From an uncultured Gammaproteobacteria bacterium (lineage in GTDB: Bacteria; Pseudomonadota; Gammaproteobacteria; SURF-13): a DNA stretch of 50,734 bases. A program made the position numbers and the translations under genes. The stretch is taken from positions 1 through 50,734 of the forward strand of contig CAWUTX010000015.1 in the NCBI GenBank assembly GCA_963925015.1, read 5' to 3'. Below, piece after piece: positions 19,498 to 41,148 of the stretch. The notes beneath the pieces are model-generated. The model was not told where the DNA came from and did no database searches. It saw nothing but the letters and a program-made list of their open reading frames with translations. Numbering within the stretch: the first letter of the stretch is position 1; every line of letters begins with the position of its first letter.

Positions 19498-19499
19498 TG

Positions 19500-19647
19500 A
19501 CTCAGGAGTCACAAAGTAAGGCGACAACGTGAAATGATGTGACTCCTGAGTAAAACACTGGTTACCCTACCCCCACCCTGTCCCGCCGCCTAAACAAGGG
19601 GCGCGGACGTGACGGGAAGTGTAGCTCTACTTACTGACTTTTGAGTA
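19500..19647 (+). repeat. Composite intergenic repeat family A, copy 1
   Basis: 14-bp perfect IR 19500-19513/19538-19551, then tacccccaccctgtcccgcc..., ends tgacttttgagta. Confidence 0.9.
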
Positions 19648-19666
19648 AATATGAATGAGGTGTGTA

Positions 19667-20887
19667 ATGGCTTGGAATGAACCCGGAGGCGGCAGCAAGG
19701 ATCCTTGGGGCGCAGGGGCGCGCAAGGGCGAGGCAGGCCCGCCCGACCTCGACGACATCCTCCGCAAACTGCAACAATTCCTCGGCGGATTGTTCGGCGG
19801 CAAGCGCAACGGCAGCAACGGCAACAACGGCAACAACGGCAACACGCGCTCCATGAGCGCGGTTGGCGCAGTTGTTGTTTTAGTAATCTGGCTCGCATCC
19901 GGCATCTATATTGTCGATCCCGCCGAACGCGGCGTGGTGCTGACCTTCGGAGATTACGCTGAGACCACGATGCCAGGTCCGCACTGGCATATCCCCTACC
20001 CGATTGAAACCGTCGAAGTCGTCAATGTCGCCCAGATACGCAATATCGAAATTGGTTTCCGCACCGGCGGAAGCGGACGTGGCGCCTCCGCTGCACCGCG
20101 TGTGCCGGTAGAGTCTCTGATGCTCACCCAGGATGAAAATATCGTCGACATCAAGCTCGCCGTGCAATACCGCGTCAAGGATGCGCGCGACTATCTGTTT
20201 AACGTGATTGACCCGGACGCTACGCTCGCCCAGGCGACCGAGAGTGCAGTACGCGAGACCATCGGCAAAAGCAGTCTGGATTTTGTGCTCACCGAGGGGC
20301 GCGCAGAAATAATGCTGCGCACCGAGACGCTGTTGCAGCGCGTGATGGATCGTTACCGCAGCGGGCTTGAAGTGACCAGCGTCAATCTGCAGGATGCCCA
20401 GCCACCCGAAGAGGTGCAAGCAGCATTCGAAGACGTCATCAAGTCGCGTGAGGATGAACAGCGCCTCAGAAACGAGGCGGAAACCTACGCCAATGACATT
20501 ATCCCGCGCGCGCGCGGCGCCGCCCAGCGCCAGATCGAGGAAAGCAAGGCCCACAAGGCGCGTGTCGTCGCGCAGGCAGAAGGTGAGGCCAGCCGCTTTA
20601 CGCAAGTGTTTGCTGAATATCGAAAGGCGCCTGCGGTGACTCGCGAGCGCTTGTATCTGGATGCGGTGGAATCGGTGCTGACCAGCGCGGGCAAGGTTGT
20701 GGTGGATGTCAAAGGCGGCAGCAATCTGCTTTATCTGCCGCTCGATCGCATGAGTGGCGTCACGCCCATGCCGCCTGACAAGGCGCTGGAGCGCATGTTG
20801 CCGCCCGCCGCCTCGGTGGTGCCCCGAACCCAGGAAGGTCAGAGTAGTGACACGCGTGATCGCACCCGCGACAGAGGAGAACGCTGA
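19667..20887 (+). CDS. hflK: FtsH modulator HflK
   Basis: MAWNEPG...GPPDLD, SPFH domain; SD GAGGTG. Confidence 0.98.
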   Translation: MAWNEPGGGSKDPWGAGARKGEAGPPDLDDILRKLQQFLGGLFGGKRNGSNGNNGNNGNTRSMSAVGAVVVLVIWLASGIYIVDPAERGVVLTFGDYAETTMPGPHWHIPYPIETVEVVNVAQIRNIEIGFRTGGSGRGASAAPRVPVESLMLTQDENIVDIKLAVQYRVKDARDYLFNVIDPDATLAQATESAVRETIGKSSLDFVLTEGRAEIMLRTETLLQRVMDRYRSGLEVTSVNLQDAQPPEEVQAAFEDVIKSREDEQRLRNEAETYANDIIPRARGAAQRQIEESKAHKARVVAQAEGEASRFTQVFAEYRKAPAVTRERLYLDAVESVLTSAGKVVVDVKGGSNLLYLPLDRMSGVTPMPPDKALERMLPPAASVVPRTQEGQSSDTRDRTRDRGER

Positions 20888-21765
20888 TGGAGAAGCTGAA
20901 GATGCTGTTGCCGGGGCTGGCCGTAGTGTTGCTGGCGGCGATATATTTTTCTATTTTTACGGTAAACGAACGTGAGCGCGTCATTCTGTTCCGGCTGGGC
21001 GAGATCGTGCGCTCAGATTTCGAGCCCGGGCTGCATTTAAAGATTCCTGTGATCAACAATGTGCGTAAATTCGATGCGCGTATTCATACTGCGGAAGCCG
21101 AGCCGGAGCGTTATCTCACCGCCGAGAAGAAAAATGTCATTGTCGATTCTTTCGTCAAGTGGCGCATCAAAAATGTTGCGGACTATTACCGCAGTATGGG
21201 TGGCGACGAATTGCGGGCAAACCTGAGGCTTTACCAGATCGTCAAGGATGGACTGCGCGGCGAATTCGGCAAGCGCACCATTCAGGATGTCATTTCCGGT
21301 GACCGGGCGAAGATCATGGAGACGCTGACTGTCACCGCTAACCAGCAGGCTCACCAGTTCGGCATCGAGGTGATCGATGTGCGCCTGCGCCGGGTGGATT
21401 TGCCCAAAGAAGTGAGTCTCTCGGTGTTCCAGCGTATGCAGGCCGAGCGCGAGAGGGTGGCGAAGGATTTGCGTGCGCGCGGCGCGGAGGCGGCGGAGCG
21501 CATCAGGGCGGACGCGGACCGGCAGCGCAGCGTGATCCTCGCTGAGGCTTACCGAGATGCCGAGGTTACGCGCGGCCAGGGCGATGCGCAGGCCGCAGCC
21601 ATCTATGCCAAGGCTTTTGGCAGCGATGCGGAATTCTACTCGCTATATCGCAGCCTGAATGCATACAAAAACACTTTTCGGGATAAAAGCGACATACTGG
21701 TGCTGGATCCCGGCTCGGATTTCTTCAAATACTTCAAGAGTCCGAATCCGGGCGGCGCGAGGTGA
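20887..21765 (+). CDS. hflC: FtsH modulator HflC
   Basis: SPFH domain, RMQAERERVA, FYSLYRSL; follows hflK. Confidence 0.98.
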   Translation: MEKLKMLLPGLAVVLLAAIYFSIFTVNERERVILFRLGEIVRSDFEPGLHLKIPVINNVRKFDARIHTAEAEPERYLTAEKKNVIVDSFVKWRIKNVADYYRSMGGDELRANLRLYQIVKDGLRGEFGKRTIQDVISGDRAKIMETLTVTANQQAHQFGIEVIDVRLRRVDLPKEVSLSVFQRMQAERERVAKDLRARGAEAAERIRADADRQRSVILAEAYRDAEVTRGQGDAQAAAIYAKAFGSDAEFYSLYRSLNAYKNTFRDKSDILVLDPGSDFFKYFKSPNPGGAR

Positions 21766-21805
21766 GTGGCGGGTAGGCGGAACCGCACCATGACGAAGGC
21801 CGGCG

Positions 21806-21991
21806 ATGTGGGATAGCCTGGCGGCTGCGATTGCGCTGTTACTCATCATCGAAGGCATACTGCCGTTTCTCAGCCCGGCGGGGCTGCGCAGTACGCTCAC
21901 CCGCATGGCGGAGATGAACGACCGCGCGCTCCGCATAGGCGGACTTGTTAGCATGCTGCTCGGCCTCGGTCTGTTATACTTCTTGCGTTAA
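21806..21991 (+). CDS. DUF2065 (YjeT-like) small membrane protein
   Basis: ALLLIIEGILPFLSP...LRIGGL; conserved position after hflC. Confidence 0.9.
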   Translation: MWDSLAAAIALLLIIEGILPFLSPAGLRSTLTRMAEMNDRALRIGGLVSMLLGLGLLYFLR

Positions 21992-22015
21992 AACCTTCAT
22001 TTTCTGACCACGCTT

Positions 22016-24500
<2,485 letters not shown>

Positions 24501-24503
<3 letters not shown>

Positions 24504-24636
24504 AAAACGCGCTGAGGGGCGCATCGCGGCGCCGGGAGCGGTCTCAAAATGATCGCTTACCACGTGTAAACTCCACTTTTTCGCCAGCCCCCGTCTTGCG
24601 CTGCATCCCCTGATCGCGTTTTTCAGCGGGCTGTTA
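24501..24636. mobile_element. MITE-like long imperfect palindrome (family C, related to family B)
   Basis: 11-bp perfect IR tgaaaaacgcg (24501-24511)/cgcgtttttca (24615-24625), imperfect arms continue inward; fills the purA-DUF3108 convergent spacer. Confidence 0.6.
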
Positions 24637-25359
24637 TGGGCTGGCGGGCGCGCGCAATCCTTCCACGGTTTTGATCAGCGCGCTGAACTCATCGCTGCCA
24701 TTCTCCTGCTGGTCAAGCCGCACCAGCAGATAATCCAGCTCCGGCGCACACCAGAACGTGGTGCGGCGCTTGCTGTCCGCATCCATGATGCGTTCGATTT
24801 TCAGCGTCTTGAGCGCGCCCAGCGGCGTAGTCAGTGTTTCCTCACCGGCGACACGAAAGCGGTAAATTTTAACCTGATCGTCATCGATCAGCGTATAGGC
24901 AAGTTTGGTCTTTCCCTGCTTGAGGTCAGTCATCAACGCGAGCTGATAGACAAGCTTGTCCAGGGTGCCTGCCGTGATGGGTATCTTGTTCGATCCGTGT
25001 TCGCTGCCGTCACCGTTGACGACGCCGCGCTCCCAGTCAAAAAGTTGATCCAGACGACGCTCCTTTTTGCCGCCGGTTTTCCGGTAACTGTAGTGCAGTG
25101 AGCGTATACGCCCGGCGTGATATTCCCATTCACTGCGTTCGACGATGAGGTCTTTCACAAACAGTGCGGCCAAGCCGCTGCTACGGGTTTCAGTCTCGAA
25201 CACCTGCCGCCCGTTGTCCTGCTGGCTGAGTGTGCGGCGCATCTCGCCCAGCAGGAGGCTGCCCTTGTGCACCGTGTAGGAGGCGTTGAATGCGGGGGGT
25301 GGCGCGGCCCATGCGGGCAGTGCCGCACACAGTGCAAGCAGGGTAATGAAATGGCGCAT
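24634..25359 (-). CDS. DUF3108-type exported protein
   Basis: Signal peptide MRHFITLLALCAALPAWA; GEETLTTPLG...FWCAPELDYLLVR; downstream of purN. Confidence 0.85.
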   Translation of the reverse strand: MRHFITLLALCAALPAWAAPPPAFNASYTVHKGSLLLGEMRRTLSQQDNGRQVFETETRSSGLAALFVKDLIVERSEWEYHAGRIRSLHYSYRKTGGKKERRLDQLFDWERGVVNGDGSEHGSNKIPITAGTLDKLVYQLALMTDLKQGKTKLAYTLIDDDQVKIYRFRVAGEETLTTPLGALKTLKIERIMDADSKRRTTFWCAPELDYLLVRLDQQENGSDEFSALIKTVEGLRAPASP

Positions 25360-25363
25360 AAGG

Positions 25364-26038
25364 CTAACGACCATGTGAGTGCGCAACAAGTTCCGGTGTA
25401 ATTCTTTCATCGTCAAGCAGCGCGTATTCGTTGCCGGGGTTGCCTGCGAGATGCAGACGTCCTTCGGAGAACCAGCGTATGGCTTGTGGATAGATGCGGT
25501 GCTCCGCTTCGAGTACGCGTGCGCCGAGCGAGGCGGCGGTGTCTACTGGCAGCACTGGCACGCGCGCCTCAAGCACTACCGGCCCGCCGTCGAGGGCGTG
25601 CGTGACGAAATGCACACTGGCGCCATGCCCATCCACACCGGCCTCCAGCGCGCGCCGGTGGGTGTCGAGGCCGGTGAAGGCGGGCAGCAGTGATGGATGA
25701 ATGTTGAGCATGCGTCCGTGGTAATGACTGACGAAGCTCGGGCTCAGGATGCGCATGAACCCGGCCAGCACCAGCAGTTCCGGTGTGTGACGGTCGATGA
25801 GGGCCTGCAGTGCGTCATCAAAGCTCTGCCGGTCGGGAAAAGTGGTGTGATCGAGTATCTCTGGAGGGATGCCAGCGTCGCGCGCCAGCGTGAGCCCCGG
25901 CGCATCGGGACGGTTGCTGATGACGGCGCGGATATCAATCGGCAGCGCCTGCCCGGCCACGGCGCTCAGAATGGCGTGCAGATTGCTGCCGCGCCCGGAG
26001 ATGAGAATGACCGTAGGCAGCCTGCGCGGCGCGCTCAC
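25364..26038 (-). CDS. purN: Phosphoribosylglycinamide formyltransferase
   Basis: [24 protein letters not shown]. Confidence 0.98.
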
Positions 26039-27111
26039 TTGCCACCGGGCCGGATGACGACATGCGGGGCGGTGTCAGTCGCGCAGGCCTCAATGTGGCC
26101 GATGTGCCACGCGGTCTCGCCGTGCTGCCGCAACAGAGCCAGGCTGCGCGCCACATCTTCAGGCGCGACACACACGATCATGCCGCTGCCGCAATTGAAA
26201 GTGCGGTACATTTCTTCATCCGGGAGCGCGCCGTGCTGTTGCAGCCAATCAAAGATCGCCGGGCGCGGCCAGGCCGTGCTGTCGACAAGCGCGCGCGTGC
26301 CGCTTGGCATCACGCGCGGCAGATTTTCCAGCAGCCCGCCGCCGGTGATGTGCGCGAGCGCGTGCACCGGCACCTGTTCGATCAGCGCGAGCAGCGGTTT
26401 GACATAGATGCGCGTGGGCGCAAGCAGCGTGGTGCCCAGCGTGCCGCCGTCAAACGCCTGGTTGAGATCGGCCTGTGCGACCTCGATGATTTTGCGGATC
26501 AGTGAATAGCCGTTCGAGTGCGGGCCGCTGGAGGCGATGCCGATCAGCGCATCACCTGCGGCTACGCGGCTGCCGTCGATGATGCGCGATTTTTCCACCA
26601 CGCCGACGCAAAATCCGGCGAGATCGTAATCGCCGGCTGAATAGAGGCCGGGCATCTCCGCAGTCTCGCCGCCCACCAGCGCGCAACCGGCCAGCTCGCA
26701 GCCGTGGCCGATGCCTTCAATGACTTTTGCCGCTGTTTCCACATCGAGCCGGCCGGTGGCATAGTAGTCGAGGAAAAACAGCGGCTCCGCGCCTTGCACC
26801 ACGATGTCATTCACGCACATCGCCACGAGGTCGATGCCGATGGTGTTGTGGATGCCGGTTTCGATGGCGAGTTTCAGTTTGGTGCCCACGCCGTCGGTGC
26901 CGGACACCAGCACCGGCTCGCGGTAGCGGCCCACGGGCAGCTCGAACAGCGCGCCGAAGCCGCCCAGCCCGGCGAGTACGCCCGGACGCTGTGTGCGCCG
27001 TGCGATGGGTTTTATTTTCTCCACCAGTCGGCTGCCGGCGTCGATGTCCACACCCGCCGCGCGATAGCTGAGAGGTGAGCTTGATGTAGTTGGGGGGTTC
27101 TTGGATTTCAC
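26035..27111 (-). CDS. purM: AIR synthase
   Basis: [35 protein letters not shown]. Confidence 0.99.
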
Positions 27112-27157
27112 GGGAGTCAGGGTCGGTGAGCGAGGGTACGGGCGTGGGCTTTGGCTG

Positions 27158-27333
27158 TACTCATATGCCAGTAATTAAGACTGCACCCTCCTACACGTCC
27201 CCGCCCCCTGTTTAGGGGGCGGGACAGAGCTTGCCCCCGGCTCGAACGGGGGGTGGGGGTAGAGTAAACAGGATTTTTGCTCAGGAGTCGCATCATTAAT
27301 GTTGTAGGCTTAATTTTCCGACTCCTGAGCAAA
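27158..27333 (-). repeat. Composite intergenic repeat family A, copy 2 (with 24-bp insert)
   Basis: 15-bp perfect IR 27276-27290/27319-27333; hairpin cccgccccct-gttt-agggggcggg; insert 27228-27251. Confidence 0.9.
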
Positions 27334-27390
27334 TATAAAATACCGTGAAGGCTCGCGTTACGGCGCCAGACTGCTAGAATACTCAAACCT

Positions 27391-27957
27391 ATGATGCGTA
27401 ATCAAGATATTCCCAATCTGATCAGTCTGTTGCGCATGCTGTTGGTGGTGCCGTTGGCGGTCATGCTGTTGCAGCAGCGCTATGCGGAGGCGTTGCTGAT
27501 ATTCATCCTGGCCGGTATCAGCGATGCACTGGACGGTTTTCTCGCCAAGCGCTATGGCTGGAAGAGCCGCTTGGGCTCGATTCTGGATCCGGTGGCGGAC
27601 AAATTATTACTGATGACCTCTTTTCTCGTCCTCGCCTGGCTTGGATTGTTGCCGCTGTGGCTGGCGGCCGTCGTGGTCGGACGCGACCTCATCATCGTAC
27701 TCGGCGCTGTTGCGTACCATTATACCATCCGGCGCTTTGATCTGCTGCCGAGCCGCACCAGCAAGGTCAATACCGTGATGCAGATTACGCTGGTGCTCGC
27801 CGTCATGCTGCACCAGAGCCTGTTGCCGCCGGTGGGGGAGGTGGTGGATGTCCTCATTTACACGGTACTCGTCACCACGCTCGCCAGCGGCGTGAACTAC
27901 ATCTGGACCTGGGGCACGCGCGCTCTGCAATCGACTGCGGATAAAACGGGTGACTGA
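27391..27957 (+). CDS. CDP-alcohol phosphatidyltransferase family protein
   Basis: IPNLISLLR; signature DALDGFLAKR...LGSILDPVADK. Confidence 0.95.
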   Translation: MMRNQDIPNLISLLRMLLVVPLAVMLLQQRYAEALLIFILAGISDALDGFLAKRYGWKSRLGSILDPVADKLLLMTSFLVLAWLGLLPLWLAAVVVGRDLIIVLGAVAYHYTIRRFDLLPSRTSKVNTVMQITLVLAVMLHQSLLPPVGEVVDVLIYTVLVTTLASGVNYIWTWGTRALQSTADKTGD

Positions 27958-29023
27958 TTCGCAACGCTGGTTCACGCTGGCTGTGGTCGCGGGCGCGGGT
28001 GTTCTGCTGTATCTGCTCGCGCCGATCTTCACGCCGTTTCTGGTGGGTGCTTTGCTGGCGTACATGTTCGACCCGCTGGTGACGTGGCTGGCGGCACGGC
28101 GGCTTTCGCGCACGCTGGCCACGACCGTCGTGTTTTCATTGCTGATGCTGCTGATAATTATTCTGCTGGTTATCTTGGTGCCTCTCATCGAGCGCCAGAT
28201 TACTGTGTTGATCGGCAAGCTGCCGGTTTACGTCGCGTGGGTGAAGAGCTCGGCACTGCCGTGGCTGAATGCGCATCACCTGGGCTTGGAGGATGTCGGG
28301 CTGGATACGGGCAGCGTGTACCAGGCGCTCGCCGGGCAGTGGCAGAAGGCGGGCGGCATCGTGGCGAGCGCGCTGGGCTCGGTGTCGCAGTCAGGCATGG
28401 CGTTGCTCGGTTGGCTCATGAACCTGCTGCTGATTCCGCTGGTGACTTTCTACCTGCTGCGCGACTGGGATATCCTGCTGGAGCAGGTTCGCAACCTGCT
28501 GCCGCGCAGGCTGGAGCCCATTGTGGCGCGCCTGGCCACGGAGAGCGATGAGGTGCTGGGCGGATTTCTGCGCGGTCAATTGCTGGTGATGCTGGCGCTC
28601 GCGCTGATCTACTCCGTGGGCCTGTGGTCCATCGGGCTCGATCTCGCGCTGCTGATCGGGGTGATGGCGGGCGTACTCAGCTTTGTGCCTTATCTCGGCG
28701 TCATCACCGGGGTGATTGCGGCAGGCATCGCCGCAGCCGTGCAGTATCAGGATTGGGTGCATCTCGTCCCGGTGCTGATCGTGTTCGGCATCGGCCAGGT
28801 GGCGGAGGGATTTTTCCTCACCCCGCGCCTGATCGGCGCACGTATCGGCCTGCATCCGATTGCCGTCATCTTCGCCATACTCGCGGGCGGTCAGTTGTTC
28901 GGATTTACCGGCGTGCTGCTCGCCCTGCCCGCCGCCGCCGTGCTGGTAGTGTTGCTGCGTTACGCGCACGAGCGCTATGTAAACAGCTATCTGTATGACC
29001 GTACGCCGGATGATTGCTCATAA
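27950..29023 (+). CDS. AI-2E family transporter
   Basis: Multi-TM, FLRGQ, FVPYLG, LTPRLIG..IGLHP; between purM and hda. Confidence 0.93.
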   Translation: MTDSQRWFTLAVVAGAGVLLYLLAPIFTPFLVGALLAYMFDPLVTWLAARRLSRTLATTVVFSLLMLLIIILLVILVPLIERQITVLIGKLPVYVAWVKSSALPWLNAHHLGLEDVGLDTGSVYQALAGQWQKAGGIVASALGSVSQSGMALLGWLMNLLLIPLVTFYLLRDWDILLEQVRNLLPRRLEPIVARLATESDEVLGGFLRGQLLVMLALALIYSVGLWSIGLDLALLIGVMAGVLSFVPYLGVITGVIAAGIAAAVQYQDWVHLVPVLIVFGIGQVAEGFFLTPRLIGARIGLHPIAVIFAILAGGQLFGFTGVLLALPAAAVLVVLLRYAHERYVNSYLYDRTPDDCS

Positions 29024-29164
29024 GTCAGTAAGTAATACTACATCTCGCGCTACGTCCCCGCCCCCTATCGAGGGGGCGGGACAGGGTGGGGGTAGAGTAA
29101 ACAGATTTTTACTCAGGAGTCATATCATGAACGTTGCAACCTTAATTTTATGACTCCTGAGTAA
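29015..29164 (-). repeat. Composite intergenic repeat family A, copy 3
   Basis: 16-bp perfect IR 29109-29124/29149-29164; hairpin cccgccccct-atcg-agggggcggg; starts tgctcataagtca. Confidence 0.9.
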
Positions 29165-29877
29165 TGGCTGCGGCGACACAACTCCCTCTCAACCTCGGCC
29201 TGCGCGACGAAGCGAGCTTTGCCAATTATCTCGCCGGCCCGAACCGCGAGGCCGTGCACGCCGTAGAAGTGCTGGTGCGCGGCGAGCACCGGTTTCTTTA
29301 TCTGTGGGGCGCGGCGGGCAGCGGCAAAACCCATCTGCTGCACGCGGCGTGTCAGGCGGTTTCCGCCGCCGGGGAGCGCTGTGCCTATCTGCCGTTGAAC
29401 GAATTGCGCGCGCTGGGCACGGACGTGCTGGAAGGTCTGGAGCATCTCGCGCTGGTGTGCGTGGACGACGTGCAATCCATCGCCGCCCACCCCGAATGGG
29501 AAACGGAGCTGTTTCATTTGTATAACCGCTTGCGCGAAACCGGCGCCATCCTTCTGGCGGCGGGTGATGCGCCGCCGTCAGCGCTGGGTTTGAGTCTGCC
29601 CGATCTGAGCTCGCGCCTTTCCTGGGGCCTGGTGCTGCAATTGCAGGCATTGAGCGACGCAGAAAAAATCGCCGCGCTGCAGCTGCGCGCACACAATCGC
29701 GGCCTGGAGCTTCCTGCGGAAGTGGGCGGCTATCTGCTGCGCCACTGGCCGCGCGACATGCCGCGTTTGTTTGAACTGTTGCAGCGCATGGACATCCATT
29801 CGCTCACCCGCCAGCGCAAGCTCACGATACCCTTCGTGCGCGAACTGATTGCGCACGAAACGGCACAGGCGGAGTAG
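29164..29877 (+). CDS. hda: DnaA regulatory inactivator Hda
   Basis: Clamp-binding QLPL, Walker A GAAGSGKTHLL, PDLSSRL, RKLTIPFV. Confidence 0.96.
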   Translation: MAAATQLPLNLGLRDEASFANYLAGPNREAVHAVEVLVRGEHRFLYLWGAAGSGKTHLLHAACQAVSAAGERCAYLPLNELRALGTDVLEGLEHLALVCVDDVQSIAAHPEWETELFHLYNRLRETGAILLAAGDAPPSALGLSLPDLSSRLSWGLVLQLQALSDAEKIAALQLRAHNRGLELPAEVGGYLLRHWPRDMPRLFELLQRMDIHSLTRQRKLTIPFVRELIAHETAQAE

Positions 29878-29971
29878 AGCGTGGCGTCGTGGCTGGAACG
29901 GCCGCAAGTCAAAAGGGCGCCCAAGTATTGTTGTCGCCTCGCTTAGCGCCTATGCTATGCAACCTTCACCG

Positions 29972-30064
29972 GGAGAGGTACCGAAGCGGTCATAACGGCG
30001 CCGACTCGAAATCGGATGGGCGGTTCATCCCGCCACGTGGGTTCGAATCCCACCCTCTCCGCCA
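29972..30064 (+). tRNA. tRNA-Ser(CGA)
   Basis: GGAGAGG/CCTCTCC acceptor stem, anticodon loop CT-CGA-AA, long variable arm, GGTTCGAATCC, encoded CCA. Confidence 0.95.
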
Positions 30065-30182
30065 TGTTATGTTTGCGAGGCTCCGGACTCCAAACAAAAG
30101 ATGTTTATCTGCAAAAGAGTTGAGTTCAAAACCCGGCTCTTTTTCTTTCATAATCAGGCCTACCTGCTAAAGAGGTGACAAA

Positions 30183-30583: not shown

Positions 30584-30598
30584 CAAGGAACCTCTGAG

Positions 30599-31156: not shown

Positions 31157-31418
31157 CGTGAATGCACTCGGGAGAGTATTAAGTCAGCGATGCAGTCTAC
31201 ACTCTCATGCCTGACCTCGTCCCGTGCTGGGGGGCGCTAGTCTCAGGAGGCCCTAAAATTGTTGTGGTTTTTTGCCCGGCGGGGGCGTAGAGTACGCACG
31301 TTGCAGTGCACTCCTGTAGTCGGTTCGGTAGTTACTCCAGTTTCTCCGGAAGCCCTCCCGCCACCTTACCTCAGGATCGAACTGCAAAAGATCGCAATTC
31401 AACTAGTGAGGTATTTAC

Positions 31419-31622
31419 GTGATTACAGGAACAGTAAAGTGGTTTAACGACGCCAAGGGTTTTGGTTTCATCACCCCCGACGACGGCAGCAAGGATGTAT
31501 TCGTGCATCACTCTGCGATTCAGGGCGGTGGATTCAAGAGCTTGGCCGAAGGTCAGAAGGTGAAGTTTGACGTAGAGCAGGGCCCGAAGGGTCCGTCGGC
31601 GGCAAACGTTCAGCCCGCCTAA
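31419..31622 (+). CDS. Cold-shock protein (CspA family, GTG start)
   Basis: RNP1 KGFGFI, RNP2 DVFVH; SD GAGGT. Confidence 0.98.
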
Positions 31623-31654
31623 GATTCAAGCACTGCGCAAGCAGGTTTGTGATG

Positions 31655-31686
31655 AAGGCCCCGCCATCCGGTGGGGCCTTTTTTTT
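31655..31686 (+). terminator. Intrinsic terminator after csp
   Basis: aaggccccgcc-atcc-ggtggggcctt followed by T run. Confidence 0.9.
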
Positions 31687-31812
31687 CATGGTGTTACACT
31701 TGTTTTCTCAAGTTCTTTAGAATCACTCGACCCCGCTCCTCATCGGATAATCAAAGCAGGGTCAATGCTTTAAAATGACTCTTTTAGCCGCTCTTTTTTC
31801 TGGAACAGTAGC

Positions 31813-33444: not shown

Positions 33445-33471
33445 TGATTTTTACATGGTTTGATGATATTT

Positions 33472-33517
33472 CCTCCCTCTCCCTGCGGGGAGAGCGCAGC
33501 CGATCGAGGGTGAGGGC
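33472..33517. repeat. REP-like C-rich/G-rich palindrome (family D)
   Basis: ctctccc-tgcg-gggagag hairpin then agggtgagggc abutting the EamA ATG. Confidence 0.6.
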
Positions 33518-34411
33518 ATGGATGTGCGCCGACACTACAAAATCGCACTCGCCTTCCTGACCCTGTACCTGGTATGGGGTTCCACCTATCTTGCGATACG
33601 CGTCGGCGTGTATGATTTGCCGCCTGCGCTGTTTGCCGGTGTACGCTTCGTGATTTCCGGCTTGCTGCTGGGTGCTTTTGCCAGGGCGAGTGGACAACAG
33701 TTTCCACACGCGCTGCGCGAATGGCGTTTGATCGCCATCATGGGAATACTGCTGCTCGCCGGTGGTAACGGCCTGGTGGTAGTGGGTGAGCAGTGGGTGC
33801 CGTCCAATCAGGCGGCGCTGCTGGTGGCGTCGACGGCCTTGTGGCTCGCGGCATTGGGCACGTTGGGGGCGCAGGGTCAGGCGCTGGGGCGTTACACCGT
33901 GGCGGGTCTGGCGGTGGGATTTTTCGGCGTCGCGCTGCTGTTGCTGTCAAACGGAGAAAAATTTTCATTCAGCCATCTGGGCGGACAATTTATTATTCTG
34001 CTCGCTGCGCTGTTCTGGTCGCTGGGCTCGATCTACGGCAAGCGTCAGCCGCAGAGCACGCCGCCGCTCATGTCCGCCGCCATGCAGATGCTGATGGGCG
34101 GGTTGTTTCTGTGCGGCGTTGGGGTGATGGCTGGCGAGATGGACGCATGGGTCTGGACCGTGCGCGGCTTGGGTGCACTCGCGTATCTCATCGTGTTCGG
34201 CACGTTGGGGTTTGCCGCCTATATCTGGCTGCTGCACAACGTCACGCCGGCGCAGTTGGGCACTTACGCTTACGTCAATCCCGCTGTCGCAGTGTTGCTC
34301 GGCTGGTGGTTGCTGAACGAAACGCTGACCGATATGCAACTTATGGGTATGGGAGTAATCCTGATGGCCGTTATTGCAGTGAGTTTGTCGTCAAGCCCGA
34401 AAAAAATATGA
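33518..34411 (+). CDS. EamA/DMT transporter (YedA-like)
   Basis: YLVWGSTYLAIR, YAYVNPAVAV; about 10 TM. Confidence 0.93.
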   Translation: MDVRRHYKIALAFLTLYLVWGSTYLAIRVGVYDLPPALFAGVRFVISGLLLGAFARASGQQFPHALREWRLIAIMGILLLAGGNGLVVVGEQWVPSNQAALLVASTALWLAALGTLGAQGQALGRYTVAGLAVGFFGVALLLLSNGEKFSFSHLGGQFIILLAALFWSLGSIYGKRQPQSTPPLMSAAMQMLMGGLFLCGVGVMAGEMDAWVWTVRGLGALAYLIVFGTLGFAAYIWLLHNVTPAQLGTYAYVNPAVAVLLGWWLLNETLTDMQLMGMGVILMAVIAVSLSSSPKKI

Positions 34412-34455
34412 TGCGATGTTACATATACCCTAAACTATATCCGAAGGAGATATTT

Positions 34456-34731
34456 ATGAAGAAATCCCTGTTGCCCTGTGCAGTTTTGTTTGCCGTCTGG
34501 GCTACCCCCGTCTTGGCCGCGCCGCCGTTTGAGCAGTTGGATGTTAATAGCGACAAAACTATCAGCCAAAAAGAATCTGAAGGCTGGCGTCCGTTGGTCA
34601 GGGTGTTCGATACGCTGGACAAGAACTGCGACGGCAAGTTGCAAGTGATTGAATACGGCTACATGTTGACCGGGAAAAAAGCGCCGGAGAAGTGTGCGGG
34701 TAAAACCTCCTCGGTAGTGAAGATAAAGTAA
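34456..34731 (+). CDS. Exported small EF-hand protein
   Basis: SD AAGGAG; signal peptide ending VLA; loops DVNSDKTISQKE and DKNCDGKLQVIE. Confidence 0.75.
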   Translation: MKKSLLPCAVLFAVWATPVLAAPPFEQLDVNSDKTISQKESEGWRPLVRVFDTLDKNCDGKLQVIEYGYMLTGKKAPEKCAGKTSSVVKIK

Positions 34732-34751
34732 CGGGGTTCAGCGCAGTCCCC

Positions 34752-35465
34752 GTGCGCGTGCGAGCGCTGATAATCACCGGTTGGCGCTGGCTGTGGCGCG
34801 CAGTGCTGCTGTTGGGTGCGGCGATACTCGCCTATCAGTTGTGGGTGTTTGCGCACATCTGGTATTGGGTGGATCATAACCCGGCGCAAAGCGCCTTTAT
34901 GGAGCGGCGTCTTGCCATCGCGCAAGAAAAAATCCCTGATGCGGCGCTTAGGCATCGATGGATACCCTACGGTCGCATCTCTATCCACCTGAAGCGCGCT
35001 CTGGTTTCGGCGGAAGACGCCAAATTCCTGGAGCACGATGGCTTCGACTGGGAAGGCATACAAACCGCCTACGAAAAGAATCTCAAAAAAGGCCGGGTGG
35101 TGGCGGGCGGTTCCACCATCAGTCAGCAACTGGCGAAAAATCTTTTCCTGTCGGGTGAGCGCAGTCTGGTGCGCAAAGGGGAAGAGGCGCTCATTACATT
35201 GATGCTGGAGTCGCTCATGAGCAAGCGCCGCATCTTTGAAATTTACCTGAACGTGATTGAATGGGGCGACAGCGTATTCGGCGCCGAGGCCGCAGCACGA
35301 CATTACTACGCCACCTCGGCGGCGGCGCTCAGCGCGGAACAGGCGGCCTGGCTTGCCGCCATCGTGACCAAACCACGCTATTATGACAAACACCGCGCCG
35401 CACGCGGGCCACAGCGCAAGTCCGCTATTCTGCTTGCGCGCATGAACGCAGCCCAAGTACCGTAA
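34752..35465 (+). CDS. mtgA: Monofunctional peptidoglycan transglycosylase
   Basis: AEDAKF.EH.GFD, GGSTISQQLAKNLFL, RKGEE. Confidence 0.95.
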   Translation: MRVRALIITGWRWLWRAVLLLGAAILAYQLWVFAHIWYWVDHNPAQSAFMERRLAIAQEKIPDAALRHRWIPYGRISIHLKRALVSAEDAKFLEHDGFDWEGIQTAYEKNLKKGRVVAGGSTISQQLAKNLFLSGERSLVRKGEEALITLMLESLMSKRRIFEIYLNVIEWGDSVFGAEAAARHYYATSAAALSAEQAAWLAAIVTKPRYYDKHRAARGPQRKSAILLARMNAAQVP

Positions 35466-35494
35466 CTAAAGATTTTCACGAGCAACCTATACAC

Positions 35495-37414
35495 ATGCCT
35501 CTCATCAGTCTCGACAACGTCTCCACCGCCTTTGGTCATCACGCGCTGCTCGATCACACCGATCTCATCATCGAGCCCGGCGAGCGTGTCTGTCTCGTCG
35601 GCCGCAACGGCACCGGGAAGTCCACGCTGATGCAGATCATCGCCGGCACGATACTGCCCGATGACGGCGTGGTGTGGCGGCAGCCGGGGTTGCGTATCGG
35701 CAGGCTGGCCCAGGATCTGGCGCTGGCGGAGGATCGCACGGTGTTCGATACTGTCGCCGAGGGCCTTGGTGATCTCGCTGCGGTGTTGAGCGACTACCGC
35801 CGCACCCTGGCGTTGCTGGATCACAATCCTACTGACGCGCAGTTGCAGCACCTGCACGAACTGCAGCACCAGCTTGAAATCCTTGATGGCTGGGGCTTTC
35901 AGCAGCGGATCGACATGGTGCTCAGCCGCCTGGAATTGCCCGCCGACAAAATCGTCGGCGAACTCTCCGGCGGCTGGAAGCGGCGCGTCGCCCTCGCGCA
36001 GGCGCTGGTCTCCGAGCCGGATCTGTTGTTGCTGGACGAGCCGACCAATCATCTGGACATCGCAGCAATCACTTGGCTGGAGGAGTTGCTGCTGAGTTTC
36101 AACGGCGGTCTGCTGTTCATCACCCATGATCGCAGTCTGCTTCAGCGCCTCGCTACCCGCATCATTGAACTTGATCGCGGACAGCTCACTTCCTGGCCGG
36201 GCGATTACCTGCATTATCTGCAAAAGAAACAGGAGATGCTCGCCGTCGAGGCGGATCACGCCGCCAAGTTCGACAAGCGGCTCGCGCAAGAAGAGGTCTG
36301 GATTCGTAAGGGGGTTCAGGCGCGCCGCACGCGCAACGAAGGCCGCGTGCGCGGTCTCTATGCCTTGCGTGAGGAGCGCGCGCGCCGCCGTATACAACCC
36401 GGACAGGCGAGCATCGCCCTGGACAGCGGCGCAGTCTCCGGCAAGCTGGTGATTGAGGTGGAGGATGTCTGCAAATCCTATGACGGCAAAGCGGTGGTCA
36501 ATAATTTTTCCGCGCGCATCATGCGCGGCGACCGCGTCGGCCTGATCGGGCCGAATGGGGCGGGCAAGACCACCTTGCTCAAGTTGCTGCTCGACGAGAT
36601 TCCGCCCGACAGCGGCAGCGTACGCCATGGCACCAAGCTGCAAGTCGCCTACTTCGACCAGTTGCGCGCCCAGCTCGACCCGGAGCGCACGGTGATCGAG
36701 AACCTCTCGCTCGGCGGCGACATGGTGACCATCAACGGTGCGTCACGACACGTCATCAGCTATATGCAGGATTTTCTGTTCTCACCCGCCCGCGCCCGCT
36801 CTCCGGTCAAGTCACTGTCCGGTGGCGAATGCAATCGTTTGTTGCTGGCGCGGCTGTTTACACAACCCGCCAATCTGCTGGTGATGGATGAGCCGACCAA
36901 TGACCTCGACATCGAGACACTGGAGTTGCTCGAAGAACTGCTCGCCACTTATGCCGGCACACTGCTGCTGGTCAGCCATGACCGTACCTTCCTGGACAAT
37001 GTGGTGACCAGTGTCATGGTGTTTGAGGGGGAGGGGAGGATTGAGGAATACGTCGGCGGCTACGCAGACTGGCAGCGCCAGAGCAAACAGCAGAGCACGA
37101 TTGCAACGCCGATCGAGCCCGTGCGCAAATCCAGTGCAAAGATTCAAACTAAAACCGCCGCGCGTAAACCCAGCTATAAAGAGCAGCGTGAACTCGAAAC
37201 CGTACACGCACGCATCGAGACGCTGGAGGCCGAGCAGAAGCGTCTGAGCGCCATGCTGGCGCAGGCCGATTTTTATCAACGCGACAAGGCCGGATTTCTC
37301 GCTGTCACGCAGCAGCTTGAAGATGCCGGCAAGGCCTTGCGTGCAGCCTATGCACGTTGGGAAGAGCTGGAGAAGCCGGGAGATGCAGTCGCATCTTCCG
37401 GAGTGCGTCTTTAG
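35495..37414 (+). CDS. uup: ABC-F ATPase Uup
   Basis: Two ABC domains, [21 protein letters not shown] linker, C-terminal coiled coil ending YARWEELE. Confidence 0.93.
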
Positions 37415-38421
37415 CTGCCTTGGTGATAACCAATAATACGCTCGACTTCGTTTTTTGACCCCAGAATTACCGGCACACGCTGGTGCAGCTCAGTGGGCTG
37501 CATATCCAGAATGCGTTCGTATCCGGTGGTACACACGCCGCCCGCCTGCTCGACGATGAATGCCATCGGATTGGCCTCGTACATGAGGCGCAATTTACCT
37601 GCCTTGCTGGGATCCTTGGTGTCCTTCGGGTACATGAACACACCGCCGCGAATCAAAATGCGGTGTACCTCGGCGACCATCGACGCGATCCAGCGCATAT
37701 TAAAATTTTTCTTGCGCGCGCCTTCCACGCCGGCCAGGCACTCATCCACGTAACGCTGCACCGGCGCCTCCCAGAAACGCTCGTTGGAGGCATTGATGGC
37801 GAACTCGTGGCTGTCTGCGGGGATTTTCATGCCGGGATGCGTGAGGATGAACTCGCCGATGTTCTGGTCGAGCGTGAAGCCGTTTACGCCGTGGCCGCTG
37901 GTAAGCACGATCATGGTGGAGGGGCCGTAGAGCGCGTAACCCGCACACACCTGCTTGGTGCCGGACTGAAGGAAGTCGCGCGCGGTCACGGATTCCTGCG
38001 ACATGCCTTTGGGCGAGCGCAGAATTGAGAAGATGGTGCCCACCGAAATGTTCACGTCGATGTTGGACGAGCCGTCGAGCGGATCGAACACGAGCAGATA
38101 CTTGCCCCTCGGATACTGGCGCGGAATCTGATAGATGTCGTCCATCTCCTCCGAGCCCATCGCGGCGAGATGGCCCGCCCATTCGTTGGACTTGATGAAG
38201 ATTTCGTTGGTGATGACGTCCAGTTTTTTCTGCGTTTCACCCTGCACGTTTTCGCTGCCCGCGCTGCCCTGAATGCCGATCAGCGCACCCTTGTGCACCG
38301 CGTTAGAGATAACCTTGCAGGCCGTGACGATGTCGTTCAGGAGCGAGCTGAAGTCGCCGCTGGCCCCGATCTGACGCTGTTCTTCGATAATAAATTGGGT
38401 AAGAGTGGTGCCGTTGTGCAT
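37411..38421 (-). CDS. fbp: Class 1 fructose-1,6-bisphosphatase
   Basis: [33 protein letters not shown]; probable start MHNGTT at 38421. Confidence 0.97.
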
Positions 38422-38707
38422 GGTTTTTCTGTCCAAGGTAGCTGTGAATTCAAAAGAAAATCATTGTGCGAGGCCGATCTCCAGCCAAGGAGGCCCACGA
38501 TGCACAACTTCCGGAGAGTTTCCCGCGAGGCGTAGCACTGAGGCATGGCGCCATATTTACGCGCAAATCATACCATAAATCACCGCCGTCAGCCGCAACT
38601 TGAATTGCGCTCGCCGGGGTTCTGGTTTAATCTTGCACGCTCGCTGACACCGGCTTAAGCCTGTCCTGAAGTGCTGCGAAGGGTAGCCAGTGTTGCGAAC
38701 AGAGTTG

Positions 38708-38798
38708 GGAGAGGTGTCCGAGCGGTTGAAGGAGCACGCCTGGAAAGTGTGTATACGGTAACCCCGTATCGCGGGTTCGAATCCCGCCCTCTCCGCCA
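38708..38798 (+). tRNA. tRNA-Ser(GGA)
   Basis: GGAGAGG/CCTCTCC stem, cacgc-CT-GGA-AA-gtgtg, long variable arm, encoded CCA. Confidence 0.96.
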
Positions 38799-38807
38799 TA
38801 ATAAATG

Positions 38808-38870
38808 CAGGGACTAGGGGCTAGGGAAAACCTAAACCCCAAAACTCTAGTCCCTAGATCCTAGCCCCTG
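38808..38870. repeat. Inverted pair of heptamer arrays (AGGGACT/AGGGGCT/AGGATCT)
   Basis: cagggactaggggctaggg ... ctctagtccctagatcctagcccctg. Confidence 0.75.
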
Positions 38871-38876
38871 TTTTAT

Positions 38877-38993
38877 GGTGGCTTGCGTCGGTCCCCTCGC
38901 AACGACAGGTTGTGAACCCCGTCAGGCCCGGAAGGGAGCAGCGGCAGCAGCTTCGCTCGTGTGCCGGGGTGTGGCCGGCGCAGGCCGCCGCCA
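38877..38993 (+). ncRNA. ffs: Signal recognition particle 4.5S RNA
   Basis: Helix 8 motif TCAGGCCCGGAAGGGAGCAGC, paired ends, position upstream of dnaX. Confidence 0.95.
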
Positions 38994-39069
38994 TAAACTC
39001 AAGACTGCGGGCCGGAAACCGGATAAAATTCGGGTACTCTGGCCTGTCATTCATACGCTATCCGATCTC

Positions 39070-40644
39070 ATGAGTTATCAAGTCCTGGCCCGCAAGTGGC
39101 GCCCGCGCAATTTTGCCGAGATGGTGGGGCAGGAGCACGTGGTGCGTGCGCTCACTCACGCGCTCGACAATGATCGCCTGCACCATGCCTTTTTGTTCAC
39201 CGGCACGCGCGGCGTGGGCAAGACCACACTGGCGCGCGTGCTCGCCAAGGCGCTGAATTGCGAACAGGGCGTCAGCTCAACGCCGTGCGGCACATGTAGC
39301 GCCTGCCGCGAGATCGACGAGGGACGCTTTGTCGATCTCATCGAGGTGGACGCCGCCTCGCGAACCAAGGTGGAGGACACGCGCGAGCTGCTGGAAAACG
39401 TGCAATACGCGCCGACGCGCGGGCGTTACAAGGTGTACCTCATCGACGAGGTGCACATGCTCTCCACCCACAGCTTCAACGCCCTGTTGAAGACGCTGGA
39501 AGAGCCGCCGCCGCACGTCAAGTTCCTGCTCGCCACCACCGATCCGCAAAAACTTCCGGTGACTATCCTTTCGCGTTGCCTGCAATTCAATCTGAAGCGC
39601 GTACCGGTCGATCTCATCATGCGCCAGATCGAACATATCTTGAAACAGGAAGGCACCGCAGGCGAGACTGCGGCATGCACGGCCATTGCAACCGCTGCGG
39701 ACGGCAGCCTGCGCGACGCATTGAGTCTGCTCGACCAGGCCATCGCTTCCGGCGGCGGTGCGCTGCGCGCTGCGGACGTGCACGCCATGCTGGGCAGCAT
39801 CGAGCAGACGCATGTGTTTACCTTGCTGGAGGCGCTGGCGCACCACAACGCCCAAGCGCTGCTGGAGCGGGTGGATTTGCTGGCGCAGCACGCGGCGGAT
39901 TTTGAGGGTGTGCTCGCCGACCTGCTTACGCAACTGCACCGTATCGCCCTGGCGCAGGTCATTCCGGATGCGGTGGACGACACTGCGGGCAACCGTGATG
40001 CCGTGCTCGCGCTGGCGCGCGCGATTCCTCCGGAAGATGTGCAACTGTTTTATCAGATCGGCACGCTGGGGCGGCGCGATCTGCCGCTGGCGCCGGATGC
40101 GCAGAGCGGGTTCGAGATGATGCTGCTGCGCATGCTCGCGTTCCGCCCTGTCTCTATTACACAGACGGTGCCGGTTACATCGAACCCACCGCCCGTGAAG
40201 GCGACACCCGTCACAGCGACGCCGAAGGCAGGCACACTGAAACCCCCGCAACCCGCCGCCAGTGGCGAGTGGGCGGAAATGATAGAGGCGCTCAAGCTCA
40301 CCGGCATGACGCGGCAACTCGCCGCGAACTGTGTGTTGCAGGGGCGCGAAGGGGCCATCATGCGTTTGCTGCTGGATGCGTCGCAGGCGCATTTGCAGCG
40401 CAAGTCCGCCGAGCAGCAGCTACAGCAGGCGTTGCAGGATTATCTCGGTGCGCCGGTCAAGCTGGAGATCAGCACCGGCACGCCCGAACGTGAGACGCCC
40501 GCGTTGACGGAGGCGCGTGTGCAAAATGATCGCCAGCAGGCGGCGCTGCAAGCCGTCGAAAGCGACGCCACCGTGCAGGCGCTGTGCGCAACCTTCAATA
40601 CCCGCGTCCAGTCCGACGCCGTGCGTGTGATAGATAAAGAGTGA
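39070..40644 (+). CDS. dnaX: DNA polymerase III subunit gamma/tau
   Basis: MSYQVLARKWRP, GTRGVGKTT, IDEVHML; start 39070. Confidence 0.98.
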   Translation: MSYQVLARKWRPRNFAEMVGQEHVVRALTHALDNDRLHHAFLFTGTRGVGKTTLARVLAKALNCEQGVSSTPCGTCSACREIDEGRFVDLIEVDAASRTKVEDTRELLENVQYAPTRGRYKVYLIDEVHMLSTHSFNALLKTLEEPPPHVKFLLATTDPQKLPVTILSRCLQFNLKRVPVDLIMRQIEHILKQEGTAGETAACTAIATAADGSLRDALSLLDQAIASGGGALRAADVHAMLGSIEQTHVFTLLEALAHHNAQALLERVDLLAQHAADFEGVLADLLTQLHRIALAQVIPDAVDDTAGNRDAVLALARAIPPEDVQLFYQIGTLGRRDLPLAPDAQSGFEMMLLRMLAFRPVSITQTVPVTSNPPPVKATPVTATPKAGTLKPPQPAASGEWAEMIEALKLTGMTRQLAANCVLQGREGAIMRLLLDASQAHLQRKSAEQQLQQALQDYLGAPVKLEISTGTPERETPALTEARVQNDRQQAALQAVESDATVQALCATFNTRVQSDAVRVIDKE

Positions 40645-40689
40645 TGGTCACAGTTTTTTACAGATAGAAATCGACGGAAGGGAAAGAAG

Positions 40690-41013
40690 ATGCAAGGTGG
40701 TCTCGGCGGTATCATGAAGCAGGCGCAGCAGATGCAGGCCAATCTGCTCAAGGCGCAGGAAGAACTCGCGGCCATGGAAGTGACGGGCGAGTCGGGTGCG
40801 GGTCTGGTGAGCGTGGTGATGAACGGGCGCCATGACGTGAAGCGTGTGCATATCGACGCCAGCCTGTTGCAGGACGACAAGGAAATTCTTGAAGACCTGT
40901 TGGCTGCGGCGGTGAATGACGCCGTGCGCAAGATCGAGCAGGTCACGCAGGAAAAATATGCCGGCATGACCGGTGGGCTCGGCCTGCCAGGCGGTTTCAA
41001 AATGCCCTTTTAG
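40690..41013 (+). CDS. ybaB: Nucleoid-associated protein YbaB/EbfC
   Basis: MKQAQQMQ...[12 protein letters not shown]...KMPF. Confidence 0.97.
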
Positions 41014-41148
41014 CCAGGAGACACAAAGATAAGGGTACGCGGCCGTCCAGGTGTCTCCTGATTAAATCTACCCCCACCCTGTCCCGCCCCCTAAACAGGG
41101 GGCGGGAACGCGTCGGAAAGTGCAGTCTTAATAGTGACCTTATGAGTA
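41012..41148 (+). repeat. Composite intergenic repeat family A, copy 4 (most diverged)
   Basis: 10-bp IR caggagacac (41015-41024)/gtgtctcctg (41051-41060); cccgccccct-aaac-agggggcggg; ends cttatgagta. Confidence 0.85.

Follow-up and report, generated by a model that had tools for sequence, protein, structure and literature searches.

A ~148-bp repeat with IS630-type ends at the gene junctions of a small gammaproteobacterial genome

Four copies of a composite repeat lie at gene junctions

We analyzed a stretch of 50,734 nt (defined as "the window", to which all coordinates without a contig name refer) from a 1.45 Mb genome with 60% G+C (G000). The window contains four copies of a non-coding repeat (defined as "Family A"), with a length of ~148 bp, or 174 bp when an optional insert (Z) is present. 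Copy bounds were mapped by HMM, from flanking TA to flanking TA. The copies and their parts are as follows.

19499..19647 (+): copy 1, in the spacer from the hflX stop codon to the hflK start codon
19498..19553 (+): first hairpin of copy 1, the left terminal repeat paired with an internal inverted copy of the left end
19500-19510 and 19541-19551 (+): 11-nt arms of this first hairpin, with 30 nt between
19580..19608 (+): GC-rich hairpin of copy 1, part of the middle module, which is without a counterpart in the IS ends
19617..19648 (+): right terminal repeat of copy 1 (the "third arm"), whose reverse complement matches an IS630-type end
27158..27331 (-): copy 2, in the divergent region of purM and a CDP-alcohol phosphatidyltransferase gene
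about 27232-27253: optional insert Z in copy 2, 26 nt
29015..29163 (-): copy 3, in the TAATG stop/start overlap of an AI-2E transporter gene and hda
41011..41148 (+): copy 4, in the ybaB/recR spacer, a variant form whose arms are altered and whose linker is shorter

The initial annotation had placed four copies at these positions, with a layout of arm, 30 nt, inverted arm, C-rich run, GC hairpin and third arm. Both the positions and the layout hold, as do the neighbors it named (hflX/hflK, the purM divergent region, AI-2E transporter/hda and ybaB/recR), and the paired arm changes it described for copies 2 and 4 are legible directly in the sequence. The AI-2E transporter gene upstream of copy 3 now stops at a TAA within the element.

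The spacer between the arms of the first hairpin had been described as exactly 30 nt, which is true of the four window copies. The larger sets have a mode of 29 nt and spacers of mostly 27-33 nt. In detail, 56 copies from G000 have spacers of 29 (27 copies), 30 (14), 28 (6), 27 (4) and 33 nt (2), and of 26, 23 and 10 nt (one each). Among the 94 copies of the covariation set (four from the window and 90 from other species), 53 have 29 nt and the range is 7-33. Alternative ends had also been proposed, and units comprising the first hairpin alone do occur, at C57:2573-2627, C92:4823-4874 and C5:8110-8173. Two copies lack the first hairpin (C68:9074 and C72:11965), and their boundaries are suggestive of, but not decisive for, excision remnants.

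Family A makes up about 1% of the genome and occurs within one taxonomic family

We estimate that G000 carries ~90-100 copies. An HMM built from the copies gave 103 non-overlapping matches, 57 of which are full-length and internal, many more than chance would produce, and Family A covers 14,041 bases (0.97% of the genome). Twenty of 234 contig ends lie inside a copy. Measured from the stop codon of the upstream gene, copies lie at a median of -2 nt; the median to the start codon of the downstream gene is 9 nt.

Of the 19 other genomes searched from the taxonomic family of G000, 15 had matches to Family A; none of 21 genomes drawn from 21 other families had any. An exact 23-mer of the element was found at at least 108 loci, with 13 assemblies among the matches listed; viral contigs contained no match to this 23-mer. 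BLASTN of copy 3 had no match in 5,426 E. coli genomes (E <= 0.01) and none in plasmids. The copies did not match Rfam at gathering thresholds, and a permissive Rfam search of positions 27100-29250 returned only a chance-level match (Pab91, E 0.56).

Empty sites in close relatives and TA junctions

The suggested check for empty sites in relatives was positive. We identified seven sites in G000 for which at least one close relative has an empty orthologue, including all four window copies. The site of copy 1 is empty in G003, G001 and G002; that of copy 2 is empty in G003, G004 and G002, with TA at the junction; and that of copy 3 is empty in G001, G003, G004 and G002. The copy 4 site is empty in G001, G003 and G008, whereas in G004 and G002 it contains a diverged copy. 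As G004 and G002 are more distant than G001 and G003, this pattern needs a loss or a second insertion. The reciprocal search, for copies filled in G001 or G003 and empty in G000, considered nine copies with sufficient flank, of which eight had no usable anchors and one was filled in both.

A TA duplication is clean at four of the seven sites (copy 2, copy 3, C72:6648 and C72:10808), with a single substitution in one of the two TA copies at three of these four junctions. The duplication is off by one base at copy 1 and unreadable at copy 4 and C39:1764. Among the 94 copies, TA flanks the left side of 65, the right side of 73 and both sides of 58. Judged by the empty sites, Family A is mobile, and its junctions fit a target duplication of TA.

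The outer ends match those of an IS630-family insertion sequence

The outer ends of Family A are inverted repeats of ~30 nt. They match those of an insertion sequence (IS) that is 1.1 kb long and belongs to the IS630 family. One such IS was found in a genome of the same taxonomic family (G014, L137:1397-2494), where it lies between TA dinucleotides. Its 351-aa product contains the domains DDE_3 (E 2e-37) and HTH_33 and is 64-69% identical to plasmid genes annotated as "IS630 family transposase".

In metagenomes, both ends were present at 72 of 81 loci of this IS, 1086-1121 bp apart. When consensus sequences of 32 positions were compared, the right end of Family A (reverse complement) agreed with the two IS ends at 24 and 20 positions, and the left end at 21 and 20. 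Between the two IS ends themselves, 23 of 32 positions agree, and random genomic 32-mers starting with TTAC had a mean of 10.3 matches. The initial annotation had considered the repeat a candidate for an undescribed system, and had named beforehand a match to an IS end as the observation that would speak against this. Such a match was found: the outer ends correspond to the terminal inverted repeats of an IS630-family element, and the TA duplication is typical of that family.

A non-autonomous element had also been proposed, which agrees with our data; ~148 bp is far too short for a 351-aa transposase. Its protein partner was said to be outside the window, and indeed no transposase of this IS clade was detected anywhere in G000, nor in 18 of the 19 other genomes of the family. 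G014, the sole family genome with the IS, has just two weak matches to Family A, a probable miniature inverted-repeat transposable element (MITE, see below); thus, IS presence and MITE abundance are not coupled in these assemblies. Metagenome-assembled genomes (MAGs) often lose IS copies, so a missing IS is weak evidence against a link. The MITE left end has GG at two variable positions, a variant carried by none of the IS copies read, and thus the exact parent was not found among them.

Other candidate sources were evaluated and rejected. IS630-type genes in G008, G006, G007 and G015 had none of the Family A end motifs searched for and no HMM match, and the inverted repeats of the G008 gene, which are readable, differ from the Family A ends. 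A weak DDE_3 match in G000 (C106) has sequence motifs that we read as probably rve/IS481-like rather than IS630. Viral contigs yielded one weak partial relative of the transposase. As for the internal arm, the G014 IS had hinted that it descends from a hairpin between the end of the IS and the start codon of the transposase; this was rejected, as no complement of the end was found before the ATG in 72 IS upstream ends.

The arms of the first hairpin covary

The first hairpin consists of the left end and an extra internal inverted copy of it. Its arms had been thought to be kept in pairing, and the covariation test on the 94 copies was positive. Each of the 13 pairs in the core helix shows double changes, and the paired cells amount to 96.4%, counts that include inherited changes besides independent events. 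Only 0-2 one-side-changed pairs were seen per pair in this hairpin. When the 3′ partner was slid by 1-3 columns, 40-53% of cells paired, and for the whole structure none of 500 shuffles reached the observed values.

Of 1215 core cells, 49 are not Watson-Crick, including five G-T or T-G and 16 C-A or A-C. Thus, wobble pairs are not enriched, which points to arm-to-arm correction at the DNA level or to selection on DNA pairing, and not to RNA structure. We infer that one of these two DNA-level processes, rather than an RNA function, has kept the arms matched. Template switching that homogenizes the arms of inverted repeats is an established mutational process according to the accounts in PMC7202029 and PMC8604942.

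The third arm had been described as the first arm inverted. The two do have conserved sequence in common, but they do not covary: across 14 positions in the 94 copies, 73.5% of cells are paired between the left and right ends, compared to 71.9% in shuffles.

Comparison with known repeat families

Family A is like several described families of bacterial repeats. RUP (repeat unit of pneumococcus), as described in PMC2229807, is a MITE thought to be moved by IS630-Spn1. By that description it resembles Family A in being a non-coding intergenic repeat of ~100-150 bp with roughly 100 copies, in having terminal repeats that resemble IS630-family ends and in inserting at TA. It differs in that the proposed IS is in the same species, whereas Family A lacks a cognate IS in G000. 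Further, unlike RUP, Family A has a third, internal end copy in a covarying hairpin, and its passenger module, which includes the GC hairpin, carries nested inserts. The Correia/NEMIS elements of Neisseria, again by description (PMC2229807), share with Family A terminal inverted repeats of ~24-30 bp, TA termini and target duplication, short and long forms distinguished by an internal segment, and locations beside or within transcription units. For Family A there is an identified IS clade with matching ends, whereas none is named for Correia in the relevant part of PMC2229807.

The ERIC/IRU elements of enterobacteria are likewise portrayed there as imperfect palindromes of ~127-150 bp with TA termini, intergenic inside operons and in either orientation (PMC2229807). 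Similarity to the ERIC sequence was not found, copy 3 having no BLASTN match in the E. coli genomes, and unlike ERIC, Family A is confined, among the genomes searched, to one family of uncultured Gammaproteobacteria. REP/REPIN sequences with their RAYT are also short, hairpin-forming, highly repeated and extragenic, with complementary arms; Family A is set apart from these by its terminal inverted repeats, its duplication of TA and its IS630-type ends, and the RAYT in G000 has a separate REP family.

Origin of Family A and of its matched arms

In combination, the results indicate that Family A is very probably a ~148-bp MITE derived from, and moved in trans by, a transposase of the IS630 family (Tc1/mariner-type DDE), and we infer that the IS630-type clade found here is the mobilizer. 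The transposase would bind the outer inverted repeats (~30 nt), excise the element and insert it at a TA dinucleotide, duplicating this target. With 60% G+C, G000 has such TA sites mostly at stop codons and in very short intergenic spacers, so that copies fill gene junctions in either orientation. The IS end is present three times in the element, as the left end, an adjoining inverted copy and the right end, the first two forming the 56-nt hairpin and the alternative short unit. The strict Watson-Crick matching of the hairpin arms may reflect template switching during replication, which would correct imperfect palindromes, or selection for DNA pairing. The middle module (the C-rich run and GC hairpin) is a passenger that takes up further small inserts.

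Alternatively, Family A could be of the REP/REPIN type and owe its spread to a RAYT (Y1 tyrosine transposase), which would recognize the hairpins as single-stranded DNA. G000 does have two PF01797 matches, one of them in the window at 16684-16938 (-), CTAC and GTAG tetranucleotides flank the GC hairpin, and the arms of the first hairpin covary, as has been reported for REPINs. However, the window Y1 gene is short at its N terminus and divided between two reading frames, and neither Y1 gene is flanked by Family A, the copy nearest to the one in the window being ~2.5 kb away. On C21, the intact RAYT gene lies between 35-nt inverted repeats that are distinct from Family A and belong to a family of ~10 copies. 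Given this, and the terminal inverted repeats, TA duplications and IS630-type ends of Family A, we rejected membership in that group, and consider this origin very improbable. A function at the RNA level, with the copies being or having become mRNA stabilizers, processing sites or translation modulators in operons, roles reported for ERIC and Correia elements, and the covariation reflecting selection on RNA structure, is unlikely. Copies do lie inside operons (e.g., hflX-hflK and AI-2E-hda) and are hence probably co-transcribed, the predicted fold of copy 3 is very stable (-31.1 kcal/mol as DNA, z-score -6.4), the left arm contains AGGAG and its partner CTCCT, and ERIC is described as having orientation-dependent effects on mRNA stability (PMC2229807). 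Against this, copies in tandem gene contexts show no orientation bias (18 in the direction of transcription and 15 opposite), G-U is not enriched among the mismatches, the copies have no Rfam match, and most of the examined sites are empty in close relatives, indicating that individual copies are dispensable.

Rather than being corrected in place, the hairpin arms may remain matched through selection on transposition competence, if a source copy must fold back perfectly in order to transpose, which is possible though doubtful. A few source lineages would predict shared arm variants, and subfamilies indeed have them (GAGTCA in 49 and GAGACA in 35 of 94 copies). Moreover, the orthologous G000/G001 pair at C72:10808 has no stem changes, all changes being elsewhere in the element, including the loop. 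On the other hand, many arm variants occur in just one or two copies, and the third end is the real right end and does not covary with the left. To our knowledge, Tc1/IS630-type transposition needs no fold-back intermediate. Quite improbable is a reading in which the internal end copy is not accidental, the hairpin being actively kept perfectly complementary and the element co-opted in these small genomes as a junction module that provides stop codons and a DNA or RNA hairpin between densely packed genes, or in which movement depends on fold-back, a route that IS630-type transposases are not known to use.

Implications

Family A is a known sort of element and no new kind of system: rather ordinary selfish DNA, apart from an unusual design with three ends. 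Its recognition accounts for repeats that occupy ~1% of a very small genome, break the assembly and sit right at gene junctions, sometimes substituting for a stop codon. The near-perfect short palindromes, about a hundred in number, are a natural data set for studying how the arms of inverted repeats stay matched. The shared ends tie an orphan MITE from one family of uncultured Gammaproteobacteria to a clade of IS630-type elements that is widespread and whose ends are strongly conserved, and yield a testable pair of transposase and substrate.

Structure and variants of the Family A repeat

The four Family A copies in the window are:

19499-19647 (+), copy 1, between hflX and hflK
27158-27331 (-), copy 2, purM divergent region
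29015-29163 (-), copy 3, between the AI-2E transporter gene and hda
41011-41148 (+), copy 4, between ybaB and recR

Direct reading confirmed the layout claimed for them in the initial annotation, and the copies align end to end. Each runs from a left arm through a 30-nt spacer, a perfectly inverted arm, an A-rich linker, a C-rich run and a GC hairpin to a tail, whose end repeats the left arm imperfectly in inverted form. None of the four has an Rfam match. A long imperfect palindrome (~56 nt) makes up the first hairpin, whose "loop" is fully paired too in some subfamilies (alignment rows L080 and L098). As the last ~23 nt of Family A resemble the second half of this palindrome, one end sequence is present three times: left, internal inverted and right.

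The spacer of exactly 30 nt, claimed as invariant, holds in the four window copies but not in larger sets. Among 56 copies from the source genome (G000) it is 29 nt in 27, 30 in 14, 28 in 6, 27 in 4, 33 in 2, and 26, 23 and 10 nt in one each. In a set of 94 copies (the four window copies and 90 from other species, chosen for carrying a Family A 23-mer), the mode is 29 nt (53 copies) and the range 7-33 nt.

The middle module accepts three optional inserts. Insert Z (26 nt) occurs in 16 of the 56 aligned copies, and 19 of its 20 BLAST matches in the source genome lie in or adjoin a Family A hit. Insert Y (82 nt) has five BLAST matches, all inside Family A. It contains three small hairpins and sits inside the GC hairpin; none was found outside Family A. 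Insert X (56 nt) has 16 matches: seven inside Family A copies, with the GC hairpin on one side and the right end on the other, one beside a copy and eight elsewhere. The 3′ half of X matches an insert inside an rsmE-like ORF (C21:5047-5835). Inserts and short forms are located as follows (C-numbers are source-genome contigs):

Insert Y: C4:7415-7496, C91:76-141, C91:13299-13364, C86:18778-18843, C57:3124-3189
Insert X in Family A: C41:1281-1336, C72:25328-25383, C7:62-116, C1:2321-2375, C110:1651-1705, C14:13516-13570, C71:9724-9753
First hairpin alone: C57:2573-2627, C92:4823-4874, C5:8110-8173
Left end plus right end unit: C25:7483-7531
Lone left end: contig C2

Elsewhere in the window, Rfam matches at gathering thresholds were the cspA thermoregulator, small SRP RNA, t44, the alpha-operon ribosome binding site and two tRNAs, the matches lying at 31293-31684, 38886-38983, 50301-50400, 10811-10915, 29972-30061 and 38708-38795.

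Abundance, distribution and genomic context

A hidden Markov model built from the 56 copies gave 145 hits in the source genome (1.45 Mb, 60% G+C, 117 contigs, the window being on C15; rated 92% complete), or 103 after overlaps were merged. Full-length hits comprise 57 internal ones and 3 at a contig end. Together the 103 hits account for 14,041 bases, or 0.97% of the genome. They touch 20 of the 234 contig ends, making the repeat a major cause of assembly breaks. With copy 3 as the query, BLASTN detected Family A in 15 of the 19 further genomes searched from this taxonomic family; 21 genomes representing 21 other families of the class gave no match. Searches of E. coli genomes and of plasmids with the same query found nothing. 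The exact 23-mer occurs at at least 108 loci, the 80 listed being from 13 assemblies of uncultured Gammaproteobacteria, and had no match among viral contigs.

Based on a crude GC3-based gene caller, the neighbouring genes are tandem for 33 of the 57 full-length copies, divergent for 11 and convergent for 7, and 4 copies are near contig ends. The remaining 2 fall "inside" ORFs, probably because the starts were miscalled. Orientation relative to tandem genes is nearly balanced (18 same, 15 opposite). Medians for the gap to the neighbouring genes are -2 nt (upstream stop codon) and 9 nt (downstream start codon). Thus, Family A fills gene junctions in either orientation. Two insertions (copy 3 and C72:6648-6820) struck a TAATG stop/start overlap, parting genes that overlap in relatives. 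At copy 3, the stop codon of the upstream gene is now a TAA inside the element.

Empty sites and target duplication

We compared orthologous regions in five genomes, four congeneric and one from a sister genus (G-numbers are related genomes):

Copy 1: absent in G003, G001 and G002
Copy 2: absent in G003, G004 and G002
Copy 3: absent in G001, G003, G004 and G002
Copy 4: absent in G003, G001 and G008; diverged copy present in G004 and G002
C72:6648: absent in G003 and G001
C72:10808: absent in G003; present in G001
C39:1764: absent in G001

At four junctions (copy 2, copy 3, C72:6648 and C72:10808), the sequences read as TA at the insertion point becoming TA on both sides of the element, with a single substitution in one TA copy in three of the four. 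The duplication at copy 1 is off by one base, and divergence is too great for TA to be read at copy 4 and C39:1764. Among the 94 copies, TA flanks the left end in 65, the right in 73 and both in 58; the next base outward is T on the left in 70 and A on the right in 81.

The ybaB-recR site of copy 4 (comparison loci L129, L136, L130, L131 and L133) is filled in the source genome and in the more distant G004 and G002, and empty in the nearer G001 and G003 and also in G008. In G004 and G002 the first hairpin is shortened and still pairs, via different bases. Either one lineage lost its copy or a single TA was hit more than once.

An IS630-type element with similar ends

Scanning 20 genomes of the family for DDE_3 domains yielded matches above the Pfam cut-off in five and a weak one in the source genome. 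One DDE_3 gene, in the related genome G014, is bounded by 46-nt inverted repeats, and these include the Family A end motif. The element (L137:1397-2494) has TA on both flanks and encodes a 351-aa protein with DDE_3 (E = 2e-37) and HTH_33 domains, which shares 64-69% identity with plasmid genes that carry the annotation "IS630 family transposase." A metagenome search returned 448 relatives, of which the best 80 were retained. Both ends were located at 72 of 81 IS loci, 1086-1121 bp apart, and all located ends share the same motif with two variable positions. A hairpin suspected to link the IS end with the start codon of the transposase was unsupported across the 72 IS copies.

Over 32 positions, the Family A right end (reverse complement) consensus agrees with the consensuses of the two IS ends at 24 and 20, the left end agrees with them at 21 and 20, and the IS ends agree with one another at 23. 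For random genomic 32-mers that begin with TTAC, the mean is 10.3 matches and the maximum 23, a value that may come from Family A copies themselves.

Neither the source genome nor 18 of the other 19 genomes of the family yielded a close relative of the G014 transposase. Family A is thus an orphan MITE (miniature inverted-repeat transposable element) in these assemblies, a statement tempered by the frequent loss of IS copies from metagenome-assembled genomes. The weak DDE_3 match in the source genome (C106:647-1822, L142) is a 391-aa ORF with an unrelated-looking C-terminal extension. By its motifs it looks like an rve/IS481-like transposase, and it was the only transposase-like DDE gene noticed there.

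Arm covariation and the origin of Family A

The paired arm changes proposed from the window copies were borne out in the 94-copy set: all 13 pairs of the first-hairpin core helix have changed on both sides, and pairing is kept in 96.4% of cells. These figures count sequences, including related ones, rather than independent events, and a UA/AU division at one pair (49 versus 35 copies) is a subfamily split. No shuffle of 500 reached the observed values in a whole-structure test, sliding the partner by 1-3 columns lowered pairing to 40-53% of cells, and RNAalifold agrees with the covariation. The left and right ends are paired in 73.5% of cells (shuffles, 71.9%); their match thus comes from conserved sequence, and co-variation adds little. 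The 5′ strand of the GC hairpin is uninformative, being fixed by the 23-mer used to choose copies.

One-side changes, such as G-C to G-U, number just 0-2 per pair. Watson-Crick pairing is missing from 49 of the 1215 core cells, among which G-T/T-G accounts for 5 and C-A/A-C for 16. This lack of preference for wobble pairs speaks against selection acting on an RNA structure in the first hairpin. We favour DNA-level correction of quasipalindromes by template switching, a process described in two published accounts (PMC7202029, PMC8604942), as the source of the strict Watson-Crick arms, with chances that we judge roughly even. Selection for a perfect fold-back in source copies would also give such arms and is itself close to an even bet. 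The one orthologous pair compared (C72:10808 in G000 and G001) has zero stem changes.

A RAYT was considered as the mover of Family A and rejected: the intact RAYT gene on C21 has members of a different REP family (~10 copies) on its flanks, and neither Y1 gene of the source genome is flanked by Family A. The C21 gene (C21:38457-39179, L109:1447-2169) encodes an apparently intact RAYT-like Y1 transposase, its open frame having no ATG, GTG or TTG start at the N-terminal motif. The 35-nt inverted repeats flanking it are themselves hairpins, and gene and repeats are a separate small REP/RAYT system. A Y1_Tnp (IS200/RAYT-like) remnant also lies in the window, between a membrane-protein gene and miaA, and looks N-terminally short and frameshifted:

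16193-16941 (-), whole remnant
16537-16941 (-), ORF matching just positions 34-118 of the 121-position Pfam profile
16193-16597 (-), ORF in another frame with a weak helix-turn-helix match

Family A is an IS630-derived MITE. From the junctions described here and IS630-family behaviour, as described for RUP and IS630-Spn1 (PMC2229807) and for ISY100 (PMC2170065), we infer mobilisation in trans: an IS630-type transposase would bind the outer ends, excise the element and insert it at TA. The internal end copy could serve as an alternative right end, in keeping with the short units. What makes Family A noteworthy is its three-end design, its wobble-free co-varying hairpin, its nested mini-inserts and its preference for stop/start junctions in a small genome.
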